A stretch of 64,000 nt of DNA. Source: an uncultured bacterium (lineage in GTDB: Bacteria > Babelota > Babeliae > Babelales > Babelaceae). Positions 18,001 to 24,000 of this stretch are shown piece by piece. The position numbers are program-made. The stretch covers positions 320,001 to 384,000 of the forward strand of contig OY970332.1 in NCBI GenBank assembly GCA_963717435.1, given 5' to 3'. Each line of letters starts with the position of its first letter. Positions within the stretch are counted from its first letter, which is position 1.

Positions 18001-21000
18001 TACGTTGTTAACCAAAAAGTTGTTAAAGGTGCAGCTGATTGGGTTAATATTATTAAGCATGCTAATTATAGCTCTAATCACTCTAGTCACGACGCTAATT
18101 CAGGCGAAAATAATAACAGTAATATTAATAAAGAAAATTTTGAAAATACTCGTTCATGTTTTGAAAAACTACGTGCAGATGGCTACAGAATTGTGGCAAC
18201 TACTCCGCACGAAAAAGATAAATTAATTTATGATCTTGATCTAGAACCTGGCAAAATTGCTCTTGTTTTTGGAACAGAAGAAACGGGCTTGAGCAAATAT
18301 GCTATGGAAAACGCTGACGAATATGTCAAAATTCCAATGTACGGATTCACTGAAAGCTTTAATATTTCTGTTAGTGTTGCTATATGTCTTTATGAACTTA
18401 CAAAAAGATTGCGCGCGTCTGATATAAATTACAAATTAAGTGAATCAGAAATTATTGATCTTCAACTTGAATGGCTCCGAAAAAGTCTGCCCCATTCGAA
18501 TCTACTTGAAAAATATTTTCTAGAAAAAAAACAGCCATAAAATTTATTCACAAATTTCTTGGTGCCAAATAAATAACCGCATGTTAGTATATAGTTAATT
18601 TTTTGAAAAAATTATAAAAAATTATTTTTAAAATTAACTGGAGCTGGCATGGAAAAAGTTATAGAAATAGAACGTCTAGAATATTCAACAGAATCCCAAA
18701 CTTTAAAATTAGATCCGTTAGGTGACGGCATAAGTTCTGTCGAGCTTGTGCGTGTTTCTGGGTCAGATTTGGATGTTGTTAATGCAGCACGCGTAAGTTA
18801 TGGCAAAGTTAGTAATGAAATAACTGAACGTGATAAAAAGTTAATTAATTATTTAATTAAGCACGATCATACAAGTCCATTTGAGCATAACCAACTATCT
18901 TTTAGAATAAAATGCCCACTATTTGTTGCGCGCCAATGGATGCGTCACAGAATGAATTCTTATAACGAAATCAGTTATCGATACGTTGAGTCCCCACTTG
19001 AGTTTTATATTCCAGTAAAATGGCGCTATCAAGATGAAACAAACAGACAGTGTTCTACTGGTGAGTTTGAAGATGATATTGCTTTGATAGAATACAAAAA
19101 AGCTTTAGCAACTTCAGGAGACGTTTATTTAAAACTTTTGGAAAATGGTGTCGCGCGTGAAATTGCACGCGGCGTTTTGCCAATGTGCACTTATACAGAA
19201 TATGTATTTACTTGTAACTTACACTCGCTATTTAATTTCTTAAAACTCAGACTCGGGCCCGGGGCCCAATGGGAAATCAGAAAATACGCCGAGTGCCTAT
19301 TTAAATTGGCGCAGCCACATTTTCCTGCTTCTTTTGAGGGCTGGCAAAAGAAGAACGCAGAATTTGAATTTTTAAAGAATATTTAATTTTAATTATTTTT
19401 AATTATCGGGAGATAACATGAAACAACAAACAATTATAAAAACTGGATTATTACTATTTTCAGTTTTTGTGCTGGGAGCGTTTACGAGAAATTATCTATG
19501 TTTATGTGGTACATGGAAAGAGACGGGGAAAAACATGGCAAAATATTTTTTCTGGAACAAAAAATCAGATACAAAATCTAACTGCTGCCAAACAAATTGC
19601 TCAAAAAAATCTGACTCAGAATCCTCCAGAAGAAACCTGGAGATGGCTGAGAAAACGAGAACAACAGAATACCCTATTTTGGACATAATAAAAAATAGAT
19701 GGTCACCAAGGGCCATGTCTGGTGAAACTATAACAAAAACTGAGCTATTTACGCTGTTTGAAGCAGCAAGATGGGCCGCTTCTTCTTATAATAATCAACC
19801 TGAAAGATTTATTTACGCAACCAGAGACAGTAAAAACTGGGAAAGGTTCTTGAATCTATTGGTACCATTTAACCAAATGTGGGCAAAAAATGCTGGGGCT
19901 CTAATAGTTGTTGTCTCAAAAAACAGCTTCGATCATAGCGGCGAATTTATGCCAACCCACTCTTTTGATACAGGCGCGGCTTGTGCAAATATGGCCCTAC
20001 AGGGTTCAGAAATGGGGCTTGTGGTTCATGGCATGGGCGGGTTTGATTATAACAGGGCTAAAACAGAGCTTAATATACCTGAGGGATACGCTGTCGAAGC
20101 TATGTTTGCCATTGGCAAACCTGGAAACGCAGATATGCTTCCTGAGCAACTACGTGGCGGCGAAACCCCATCCGGGAGAAAGGCATTTGCCCAAATCGCA
20201 TGCGAAGATAAGTTTAACTTTTAGTTAAAGCGGGGGTATAATTACCCCCCTTGAAATAAGATAATTTTTGACATTTCGAGAGATTTTGGGCATAATAAAC
20301 CTTGAACATGAAAAATGAATATAAAAATCTTATCTGTAAATCAAATTTCTTTAAATTTTTAAGCACAAATAAAGGATTTCAATGGCAACGAGTAAATCTG
20401 GCGGTTCTACCCAGAATGGTCGTGACAGTCAAAGCAAACGTTTAGGCGTAAAGCTATACGACGGCGAACAAGTAACAGGTGGCGAAATAATAGTTCGTCA
20501 AAGAGGTACACAATTTCACCCTGGAAAGAATGTGGGCTTGGGTTCTGACTACACAATTTTTGCAGTTGGACAAGGTTCAGTTAAGTTCCATTGGGGCAGA
20601 AAAGGCAGAAAATACGTTTCTGTTGTCTAAGCTACCATTTTCCCAGTTTTAGTAAGTAATTTATTTCTTTCAGTCGGAGAGTGAAATGATTGATTTTCTG
20701 AAGTATAGAACAGCATGCCTGATATTTTCAGTGTTGATATTTGTGACTTTTATAGGCGCATGTGTTTATAAGTACCAAACAACCGGAAGAATTTTTAACT
20801 ACAGCGTTGATTTTACCGGAGGAACCCAGGTTCTATTTGGTTTCTCAAAGCCAGTAGTGTCGTCTGAAATATCAAGTATATTAAATAAAAATGGATGGAC
20901 GGGAGCAACAATCAGAGAATTCTCTCAGACAGAGTTACTTGTCAGAACAAAGGAAGTAGCTGAAGATGTCAGCGGCCTAGCAGAGAAAATGCGCTCTGAC

Positions 21001-24000
21001 TTACAACAGGCTCTTCCTGAAAACACCGTTGAAATAAAACAAACTGACAGCGTCGGGGCTGGTATCGGGGCTTCTTTGAGATTGAAATCTTTGCAGGCTA
21101 TACTTGCAGGACTTGTCTTGATGTTGCTATTTATAGCATTCAGATTCTGGTCATTTGCCTACGGGATGGGAGCGTTGGTCTCATTATTTCATGATGCTAT
21201 TGTAATCTTGGCCGTGTTCTTGTTATTGGACAAAGAGATATCGATAAATATTATCGGCGCAATTATGACAATATTGGGTTATTCGATTAACGACACAATT
21301 GTTATATTTTCAAGAATCAGAGAAAACGTTAAAAAGTTGCATAATAAATCGATGTACGAAATAGTTAATATAAGTATTAACGAAACACTTAGAAGAACAT
21401 TACTTTTAACTACAGCGACATTGCTTGTTGTTATATCATTGTTCTTATTTGGTGGCGAAGTACTAAGAGACTTCTCTCTTGCATTGCTGGTTGGTATGAT
21501 TTTTGGTACATACTCTTCAGTTTATATAGCAAACCCTGTAATGTTGTTTTTGTTAAAGGGTAAAAAGTAGATTAAATTAATTTTATATTCTAAGTTATAA
21601 ACCAAAGTTAGAAATCAAACTGCGGCCCATAATAATAAAAAAGTGATATGGGCCGCACAATCAAAAGAAAAAAAAGAGTAGTTTCTATATAATTACAAAT
21701 CCAAAAGATCTTTGTCGTCAAGCAGAAAAACAAATTAGCAGTTAAATTTGCATAATAAAATTTATATAAAAATAATAAATCGCGGGGGAAAAATAATATG
21801 TTTTTACAGGAGATTCATGCATGAGAGCTCAAGAATTAAAAGAGATGAGCCTTAATGATCTACACATTCTGGCAAAAAAGCTAGGAATAGTTGGAGCAAC
21901 TTTATTATCAAAAGCTGATTTGATCAGTAAAATTATCGAATTTGAAACAAATCCTGACAAAGAACCCGAAGTTGAAGGTGTTCTTGAAAAGCTTCCCGAT
22001 GGATTTGGTTTTCTACGTTCAGCACGATTTGATTATGTTTCTGGACCAGACGACATATATGTCTCACCATCCCAAATTAGAAGATTTAACTTAAGAACAG
22101 GGGATATGGTTTCTGGTGTAATCAGAAAACCAAAAGATAATGAAAAATATTTTGCATTATTAAAAATCAATAAAGTAAATCAACAGGATCCTGCACTATT
22201 ATCTGACAGGCCCATGTTTGACAGACTTACTCCATTACATCCAAATCAAAAATTTAATCTGGAATACGATCCTAACTATATTTCAACACGTGTTATGGAT
22301 CTTTTCACGCCAATTGGTAAAGGACAGCGTGGTCTGATTGTTGCACCCCCAAAAGCGGGTAAAACTGTTTTGTTAAAAGAGATTGCAAAGACTATAGTCG
22401 CAAATCACCCTGAGGTTTATCTTATTGTTCTTCTAATTGACGAACGCCCTGAAGAAGTCTCTGATATGCGCCGAATTATTAAAGGCAATAACGCCGAAGT
22501 TATAAGCTCGACGTTTGATGAGGCTGCTGAAAGACACGTTCAGGTTGCTGAAATAATTTTGGAAAAAGCTAAAAGATTCGTAGAATCAGGACAACATGTT
22601 GTAATCTTGCTTGATGCAATCACAAGACTTGCTCGTGCATACAACACAATCGCTCCGTCATCAGGAAAAATTCTTACTGGTGGTATCGACGCCAACGCGT
22701 TACAACATCCAAAGAGATTTTTTGGTGCCGCAAGAAACACAGAAGAAGGCGGCTCCCTTACAATTATTGCAACAGCTTTAATTGAAACAGGTTCTCGTAT
22801 GGACGAAGTTATTTACGAAGAGTTTAAGGGTACTGGTAACATGGAAATTCACCTGAGCCGTAAACTTGCTAATCGTAGAACGTTCCCTGCGTTTGATCTG
22901 CTTCTATCTGGTACAAGACGTGAAGAGTTGCTTCTTTCTGAAGCTGATTTAAACAAAGTTTGGATCTTGAGAAAGTTCTTATCAACCATGAACACTGTTG
23001 AGGGAATGGAATTCTTAATCGAAAGAATTAAGAAATACAAGACAAACGAAGAGTTTATCGACGCTATGAATAAGAAAAATGGTTCTGCCTTGCCTACAGG
23101 CAGTTCAAATGGCAGTAACGGCAATATCTAATTAATTTTGGCCCTTAAGTATGCGTGTATTTTTAAAGCACAAATCTTAAGGGCCTATTTGTTTTAAAAA
23201 AATTCAGAATATAATACAGTGACTTAGAAGTATTAAATTATTTTTAATAATTTTTCTGGATTAGCCCATGAAAAAGTTTATTTTTATCGTGTTTTTGCTT
23301 TTAGGAATAAATTATATTCAGGCTCTTAAAGTCACGTTGCCAAGCGCAACTGTTTTAATTTCAAGATTCTTGTCGACACGTGAAAAAACAAATCATGCAC
23401 TATACGATTATCTGATAAATCAAACAGAATTAGTGATAAAATTGGAATATAAAACAATAGAAACTTATGAAATCAGAGCTATATTAGACAGAGTTATAGA
23501 AACTATGCTCGATCCTGAAATTGAAGAAAAAGCGATGCAAAAAAGACGAGAAATATTATTAATTATTTTGCGAGATTCTTATGAAGCAGCAAAAGAACAA
23601 GAGCTTTTATAAACATAAAATTAAAATATTAAAAGAAAAAAACTATGACAATTATCAAAACAAAAAAAATCACTCTCAAAATTCTTAAAGCAAGTTTTAT
23701 TGCATTTTGTTTTAATTCACTAGCCATGGAAAGATCTGACAGATCTGACAGATCCCAAGAATACTCACGCTCTTACGGCAGTTATGGTTCATATGGCTCA
23801 TGCGGCTCATACGCCTCCATCCCATCATTTCAAGAAGTATTTCAAGAGAATTCAAAAGAATATGCGGAGGCAAAAGCAAAATTTGAAACTGAATTTATAG
23901 ACCGTAAGCCAGAACATCTGCGCCTAAGTACAGCTTTTGGATTTTTGTTTAATAGCCAAAGCGCGCACGCAGAACTTATTGGTTGGCTGAAAGCAAATAT

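Follow-up and report, generated by a model that had tools for sequence, protein, structure and literature searches.

Absence of the ribosome-assembly GTPase Obg throughout the Babelota, with HflX retained

In the 64,000-nucleotide window analysed here (the whole stretch from position 320,001 to 384,000 of contig OY970332.1, assembly GCA_963717435.1, from an uncultured member of the Babelaceae), the genes rpmA, secF and rho follow one another in a block (Table 1). In bacteria, obg is a common downstream neighbour of rpmA, with rplU usually lying upstream. Here the spacer that follows rpmA, a position occupied by obg in many bacteria, is too short for any gene or remnant, and rplU is found at contig positions 1135567-1135974, about 795 kb away, so that rpmA is split from both rplU and obg. 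The genome is affiliated with the Babelota (TM6/Dependentiae), as its rpmA matches at 65-75% with a common gene order and its 23S domain V is 88-97% identical to named Babeliales loci. Babelota are protist-parasitic bacteria, and Obg is a helper enzyme kept by almost all other bacteria. The window also encodes an MlaD protein, a faint hint that an outer membrane is present.

Table 1. Genes and spacer at the rpmA locus, in positions of the window.
Feature	Position	Strand	Evidence
Nitroreductase-family gene, in the usual place of rplU	19418-20224	+	PF00881
rpmA (ribosomal protein bL27)	20382-20630	+	TIGR00062, 123 bits (cut-off 90)
Spacer between rpmA and secF, 55 nt	20631-20685	+	Read from sequence
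secF	20686-21570	+	TIGR00966, 259 bits (over cut-off)
rho, completing the rpmA-secF-rho block	21821-23131	+	TIGR00767, over cut-off

This arrangement is shared by relatives, where secF lies 3' of rpmA in all 12 Babelota-like loci and rho 3' of secF in 11 of them, the contig of the twelfth stopping within secF; the gene upstream of rpmA is variable, and is often polA. Of 68 non-Babelota rpmA loci, 36 had obg at a distance of no more than 4 kb, as opposed to none of the 12 Babelota-like ones. The initial annotation, in which rpmA ran directly into secF, thus described the locus correctly, but because only 36/68 non-Babelota loci have obg nearby, the empty slot is by itself weak evidence that the gene was lost.

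Stronger evidence comes from searches of the whole genome. PF01018, the glycine-rich N-terminal Obg fold, gave no match in this genome at E<=10. A profile derived from 34 full-length Obg sequences, searched with --max against the 9,984 six-frame ORFs of at least 40 aa, gave significant matches confined to the G-domains of YchF, HflX, Der and MnmE, with none to profile positions 1-156, and frameshift-tolerant tblastn with the same 34 proteins as queries likewise recovered no Obg N-terminal domain. ORFs of this genome with Obg-like spaced glycine motifs comprised just three unrelated proteins, and no Obg-type G-domain scored best to TIGR02729. The top candidate was YchF, which by score is an ordinary YchF rather than a converted Obg (TIGR00092 400 bits; TIGR02729 68 bits, cut-off 280). 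The reported absence of obg from this genome is thereby borne out, and the concern raised with it, that a very diverged Obg could be missed, was addressed by these unfiltered profile, tblastn and glycine-motif searches, none of which revealed an Obg in this genome. Since the genome is a single contig of 1,198,203 bases with no N, whose GC skew has two arms and which carries 35 tRNAs (for all 20 amino acids), a tmRNA and an rRNA operon, its completeness figure of 88.8% is probably an understatement.

Across the phylum, full-length Obg (TIGR02729) was found in 0 of 261 Babelota genomes, and PF01018 exceeded its cut-off in 1 of 251. That single match lies on the end of a chimeric 2.8 kb contig and was rejected as a native obg, as a stretch of roughly 210 bp with 73% GC (bases 1-238) is joined there to 37% GC sequence, in which the first ORF shares 50% identity with the end of a protein of the present genome; a search for the donor of the fragment gave no match in E. 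coli. In 10 further genomes, each assembled in one or two contigs, MMR_HSR1 searches (E<=1e-6) always gave the same six domains, namely two of Der and one each of MnmE, YchF, HflX and IF2, so that all 60 were assigned and no spare GTPase was left. The absence of Obg is confirmed as real, and with the genome and phylum searches and the closed G-domain list behind it, the view that Babelota build ribosomes without ObgE, first drawn from 150 further genomes, holds at the larger scale; these genomes are kin, and together count as roughly one event.

Obg is not the only assembly factor missing. While Der was found in 101/101 Babelota genomes, EngB, RimM, Era, RsgA, RbgA, RsfS and the (p)ppGpp synthetase RelA/SpoT were each found in 0/101, in searches that recovered the factor concerned from 5 to 11 of the 14 known genomes run as controls. 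The E-value limits were meant to exclude paralogues (Era 1e-30, EngB 1e-20, RsgA 1e-12, RbgA 1e-45), and are so strict that very diverged versions of these four may have been missed outside the 11 genomes with listed G-domains. The absence of EngB and RimM proposed earlier is supported by these counts, and the gene order rpsP-khpA-trmD-rplS in this genome leaves no slot for rimM. RimP was found in 0/5 genomes and RlmE exceeded its cut-off in 0/5, the FtsJ-fold match in this genome being TlyA. RluD, RbfA, BipA, uL16 and bL36 are retained. The initial annotation had listed Der, HflX, YchF, BipA and LepA as the remaining GTPases, which holds for the first four, but lepA is frameshifted here and spread over several reading frames, although it is intact in 4/4 relatives. 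Its statement that only MnmE, HflX, Der and YchF bear the TRAFAC pattern is correct for the Obg/Era/TrmE groups but not overall, as the TRAFAC class also includes EF-Tu, EF-G, IF2 and BipA. Possible substitutes for Obg were considered as well, but no RbgA, RsgA or spare GTPase was found in the 101-genome searches or the G-domain lists. Single E. coli queries gave no match in this genome for truB, greA, rlmH, yhbY, rsmB, tsaC, rnr and bL30, which serve as leads only, nor for RNase III (rnc), whose loss is already published (PMC4378268); the best match to yjgA, a gene whose loss is part of the CPR-like repertoire and which is likewise no more than a lead here, had an E of 0.25. Such queries are unreliable for small proteins, because RbfA was missed in this way and then found by profile in 5/5 genomes.

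The absence of Obg in Babelota is already known, having been in print since 2015-16. In the main text and methods of Yeoh et al. (PMC4776705), it is stated that the OBG GTPase was lacking in each of the seven TM6 genomes, and a genuine, lineage-specific loss is inferred; gene, phylum and conclusion are the same as here, and the novelty implied when only an uncommented table was known does not stand. In those sections the observation rests on 7 genomes and CheckM markers only, and takes up a single sentence that draws no connection to ribosome assembly, as opposed to the 261 genomes, closed G-domain list and partner inventory given here. Loss of Era in Dependentiae is likewise in print (PMC10582724), and the remaining zeros already stood in a 2015 table. 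What the present analysis adds is scale, the full factor inventory and the retention of HflX in 100 of 101 genomes, and its value lies in an overlooked fact together with the HflX lead.

We consider most likely, with moderate confidence, a single ancestral loss of obg alongside a wider loss of helpers, with Der left and the 50S subunit finished without the Obg/RsfS checkpoint. The uniform absence suggests a single deletion of obg in the ancestor shared by all Babelota, within a broader shedding of helpers for ribosome assembly by an intracellular parasite that grows slowly. RsfS (the Obg partner), the (p)ppGpp synthetase that regulates Obg and apparently RlmE are gone too, as are Era, RsgA, EngB, RbgA, RimM and RimP by the searches above, which leaves Der as the sole dedicated assembly GTPase. 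In E. coli, premature h89 is reported to be stabilised by EngA alone, with ObgE acting later together with RsfS, RluD and YjgA (bioRxiv 10.64898/2026.02.15.706057). By analogy, Der may keep helix 89 and the peptidyl transferase centre premature in Babelota, after which uL16 and bL36 would bind and the centre would complete its folding, skipping the final Obg/RsfS checkpoint, with the organism presumably tolerating the speed and fidelity of such folding; none of the rRNA changes found in this analysis would be required. Assembly without either Obg or HflX is possible, as 179 of 204 CPR genomes without obgE also lack hflX. Against the Der-only route stand the report, cited in PMC12641178, that Der as well as ObgE matters if reconstitution is to be efficient under physiological conditions, and the retention of HflX, which this route leaves unexplained.

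That Obg is present but unseen, being too diverged, unassembled or mis-binned, is extremely improbable and already largely refuted. The phylum-wide search does start with a loose filter, and marker-based absence can mislead, as leucyl-tRNA synthetase was listed as absent in PMC4776705, yet a LeuS homologue is found here (E 7e-80). However, the unfiltered searches and the glycine-motif scan of this genome were negative, the same closed G-domain list recurs in 10 further genomes, and Der was recovered throughout the same 101-genome set. It is distinctly unlikely that a lineage-specific unrelated protein or an altered 23S rRNA performs the job of Obg, which contacts H89-H93 (PMC4028186). Two changes at this site do not track Obg loss. 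U2467 in helix 89 occurs in 26/30 phylum loci among the matches listed, but 50 of 118 among the matches listed are less than 90% identical to this 23S and include Ehrlichia and Cloacimonadota, so it is frequent in Babelota yet not exclusive. The compensatory pair A2510-U2578 in helix 90 appeared phylum-specific in a first scan, where the majority of 51 matches were Babelota-like, whereas in a second, 25/120 among the matches listed were 23S genes unlike those of Babelota. With A2510 in only 33 of the 95 Babelota genomes that have the site assembled (C in 60, U in 2), and with 4 of 5 carriers not labelled Babelota encoding Obg, co-adaptation was rejected, because a minority of Babelota carry the pair and Obg-bearing lineages share it.

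More tentative than the Der-only reading, and on balance doubtful, is the recruitment of HflX as a constitutive late 50S factor replacing Obg, which would bind over the peptidyl transferase centre, prevent early subunit joining and release the mature subunit, like its mitochondrial homologue GTPBP6. HflX is present in 100/101 Babelota, as opposed to 13.7% of CPR and 13/47 other small genomes, 46 of which have Obg (PMC4378268 supplementary table), and the ffh/rpsP/trmD block has hflX as its back-to-back neighbour in this genome and at 11 of the 12 loci of relatives, the twelfth having hflX beside rbfA. GTPBP6 is described as required in late large-subunit assembly, binding above the centre as does GTPBP5, an Obg homologue that it displaces (PMC7736812, PMC8209004), a precedent that could apply to Babelota HflX by analogy; it acts following GTPBP5, however, not in its stead, and mitochondria retain two Obg homologues (GTPBP5, GTPBP10). 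Retention may also be mere default, as HflX occurs in 94% of non-CPR bacteria, or may serve ribosome recycling, and in E. coli its loss is reported to cause no assembly defect (PMC7736812). The protein of this genome is complete in its N-terminal, helical and G domains (TIGR03156 387 bits, cut-off 217), and an alignment of 13 Babelota sequences shows an ordinary HflX with no C-terminal domain and no new insertion. As a general Obg substitute HflX is contradicted by CPR counts, where hflX is no commoner after obgE loss (25/204 genomes without obgE, 44/301 with it). It is similarly rather unlikely that Babelota evolved an Obg-free 50S route on their own, in which Der would shape the peptidyl transferase centre and the normally dispensable HflX would become an essential last checkpoint, converging on GTPBP6.

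Outside the CPR, obgE occurs in 99.4% of genomes; it is listed among the BAC120 markers and as an essential gene of E. coli. Babelota are classed as non-CPR in PMC12641178, while in PMC4776705 TM6 joined Patescibacteria in one of two trees (87% support) and its placement was called open. Like the CPR class ABY1, which keeps der without obgE (Amikura et al., PMC12641178), Babelota retain Der and have lost Obg, along with era, rimM, rimP and rsfS; in CPR, rimM, rimP, rsfS and rbgA stand at about 0-1%, era at 19%, rsgA at 6% and engB at 13% (PMC12641178). bL30, a single-query lead in this genome, would be a further likeness. The two differ in HflX (99% in Babelota, 14% in CPR), in Rel (0/101 as opposed to 75%), in RNase III (no single-query match in this genome, 99% in CPR) and in that Obg loss is phylum-wide in Babelota and class-specific in CPR; the loss of hflX with retention of rnc and rel is thus not seen here. 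Among Chlamydiae and other small parasite genomes (n=47), many also lack these factors, with Era present in 36, RimM in 31, EngB in 26, RimP in 23, RlmE in 24 and Rel in 29 (PMC4378268 Additional file 11); for Obg and HflX, Babelota are the reverse of this group. Provided that Babelota are independent of CPR, they contradict the inference made in 2025 that a repertoire of this kind points to early divergence, and if the Obg-free Der/HflX route were true, a CPR-like repertoire could arise by late reductive loss and would not have to signal an early split. Without Obg, Era, EngB, RsgA, RbgA, RimM and RsfS, Babelota offer a naturally minimal setting in which to study 50S assembly, and as Babela has been grown in protist co-culture (PMC4378268), pre-50S particles are obtainable.

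The absence of the late 50S assembly GTPase Obg (ObgE/CgtA) from this genome, asserted in the initial annotation, was borne out by every search applied. The Obg N-terminal domain (PF01018) has no match in the genome, and a profile built from 34 full-length Obg proteins, run unfiltered against all six-frame ORFs of at least 40 aa, matched nothing beyond G-domains, those of YchF, HflX, Der (EngA) and MnmE; tblastn with the same 34 proteins agrees, finding no Obg. Each of these four proteins scores above its own NCBIfam cut-off, and the MMR_HSR1 list of the genome holds beyond them only IF2, BipA, EF-Tu and EF-G, together with weak P-loop matches. 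The genome is a single contig (1,198,203 bases, no N) with a two-armed GC skew, and it carries 16S-23S genes, tmRNA and a tRNA set that covers all 20 amino acids.

The same absence, claimed for the whole phylum Babelota (TM6/Dependentiae), also held, as the full-length Obg model TIGR02729 was found in 0 of 261 Babelota genomes (189 at least 90% complete; 145 genera). PF01018 exceeded its cut-off in one of 251 genomes; the match is a fragment of 79 residues located where a contig ends (G155:C144:1-238; loci L001 and L457). A native obg was rejected here, where the fragment has 73% GC versus 37% for the rest and is fused to a Babelota-type ORF end; this contig end is a chimera with a foreign high-GC obg fragment. 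Ten genomes in one or two contigs each carry the same six G-domains and no others at E<=1e-6. Together, these findings make the absence of Obg from Babelota secure, to near certainty.

At the locus itself, rpmA (bL27) adjoins secF with no obg between them, as first described; a nitroreductase gene lies directly upstream of rpmA, and rplU is located elsewhere in the genome. When bL27 of this genome was used as query, 80 loci were recovered, and gene order was inspected in 14 picked by title and GC. Twelve of these are Babelota-like, with rpmA-secF in all 12 and continuing into rho in 11, which indicates that the rearrangement is old and phylum-wide. Among the remaining 68 bL27 loci obg lies within 4 kb of rpmA in 36, and the empty slot, taken alone, proves little about gene absence. 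Six loci (L028, L032, L033, L039, L063, L130) show Babelota-type gene order or 23S under Pseudomonadota or Clostridiales titles, which are probably wrong.

Features around rpmA, in window coordinates
Feature	Position	Strand	Basis or remark
rpmA (bL27)	20382-20630	+	locus annotation by profile
spacer rpmA to secF, 55 nt	between 20630 and 20686	+	sequence
secF	20686-21570	+	locus annotation by profile
rho	21821-23131	+	locus annotation by profile
MlaD protein, SpoU methylase, thyX, tsaD, DUF2062, smpB, tmRNA	14906-16405, 17764-19386, 24675-25700, 26639-27560, 28796-29173		ordinary housekeeping neighbours

Other assembly factors were counted in one constant panel of 101 genomes from 14 families, made up of this genome plus 100 others of >=90% completeness; Der is present in all 101 and HflX in 100, while Era, RsgA, EngB (YihA), RimM, RsfS, RbgA and RelA/SpoT each score 0/101, in line with the earlier report that EngB and RimM are absent. 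In five genomes tested, RbfA was found in all and RimP in none, and RlmE was above cut-off in none; an FtsJ-fold protein is present in all five and is TlyA in this genome. RluD, BipA, uL16 and bL36 are kept alongside Der. LepA, listed initially among the remaining GTPases, is intact in 4/4 relatives, but in this genome lepA (G000:C1:1145345-1147194, whole-contig positions; locus L520), outside the window, is spread over several reading frames, and may be a decaying pseudogene or a polishing error. The trmD frame (G000:C1:766351-767715) is 454 aa versus 255 in E. coli, which suggests a C-terminal fusion.

The loss of Obg is real and phylum-wide, and it is already known, having been stated in print in 2015-16 and overlooked afterwards, so that its implied novelty does not stand. 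Supplementary file 2 of PMC4378268 gives Obg, Era, RsfS, RimM, EngB, RimP, RlmE, RbgA and Rel as 0/0 for two genomes, without comment, as had been noted for Obg; in the available text of that paper, section 11 omits these nine names and 'obg' is missing from the main text. The TM6 absences listed in PMC4776705 include, besides Obg, leucyl-tRNA synthetase; a LeuS homologue nevertheless exists here (G000:C1:387596-390031, just past the window), so the published inference on Obg needed the present check. It matches in more than one frame, and leuS is the only such case among 57 E. coli queries matching at E<=1e-4, a census that missed lepA. Dependentiae are among the groups listed without Era in PMC10582724, and the accessible part of bioRxiv 10.1101/2021.05.31.446380 gives no decision on whether Babelota are independent of CPR. 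In the openly licensed literature, as far as its text was available, no paper was found that presents the complete inventory or describes the HflX pattern in Babelota, and a published heat map may show the gap. The interest of the finding lies in its scale, in a conflict with the 2025 evolutionary argument (Amikura et al., PMC12641178) that would hold if Babelota are independent of CPR, and in a testable candidate substitute, HflX.

In E. coli, YihA acts before EngA and EngA before ObgE; premature h89 is held by EngA alone, ObgE binds from the opposite side, and the finished subunit is licensed by ObgE with RsfS, RluD and YjgA (partial text of bioRxiv 10.64898/2026.02.15.706057). ObgE is described as an anti-association factor that ppGpp stimulates; its N-terminal domain contacts H89-H93, and overexpression of ObgE suppresses RlmE loss (PMC4028186, in part). 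Babelota, unlike E. coli, lack the first and third GTPases (EngB, Obg); RsfS, Rel and, it appears, RlmE are gone too, a pattern suggesting that the entire final checkpoint was lost together with its stress input. By this comparison, Der would steer the peptidyl transferase centre while the last 50S steps proceed unchecked, a route that we moderately favour. CPR genomes show such a route to be possible, as 179 of the 204 without obgE are without hflX as well.

Alternatively, HflX might take over the late 50S role of Obg, which we consider unlikely, although its retention in Babelota is the reverse of the pattern in 47 other small genomes, where Obg occurs in 46 and HflX in 13 (rows of the PMC4378268 supplementary table). 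Of the 12 relatives' loci that scored best among 100, 11 have hflX and the ffh/rpsP/trmD block as back-to-back neighbours. The HflX homologue GTPBP6 is reported, in the portions available, to be required in late mitochondrial large-subunit assembly and to displace GTPBP5, a homologue of Obg, at the site the two share (PMC7736812, PMC8209004). However, 94% of non-CPR bacteria carry HflX, its presence in CPR is unlinked to obgE loss, the Babelota HflX alignment has no new features, and its role may be recycling.

Co-adaptation of two 23S rRNA sites to Obg loss was rejected. In this genome A2510-U2578 replaces C-G in H90 (G000:C1:716468-716560) and U2467 occurs in H89 (E. coli numbering checked for both), and neither change tracks the loss: A2510 is found in 33/95 Babelota, with A-U and C-G mixed inside several families, and in four Obg-bearing genomes under non-Babelota labels, while U2467, present in 26/30 phylum loci, belongs to distant lineages in 50 of the 118 collection matches listed. 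The A2510-U2578 pair is compensatory and recurs at loci that bear Elusimicrobia, Termititenax, Eremiobacteraeota and Marinamargulisbacteria labels. Constraint on H89 and H90 may be relaxed. Locus L152, in a 1.2 Mb genome labelled Minisyncoccota (G255) in which the Obg domain was searched and not found, has both U2467 and A2510, with 86% identity there to the present 23S. At L308 (G137:C1, ~1727800) the 23S sequence gives way at helix 91, near position 2534, to DNA that is unrelated, probably an intron, and in six loci with Eremiobacteraeota labels (L180, L201, L213, L222, L233, L242) alignment is lost just before 2474 in helix 89, which suggests a common intron site. Near position 285, domain I of the present 23S (G000:C1 ~714130-714210) carries an insertion of ~75 nt that E. 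coli lacks.
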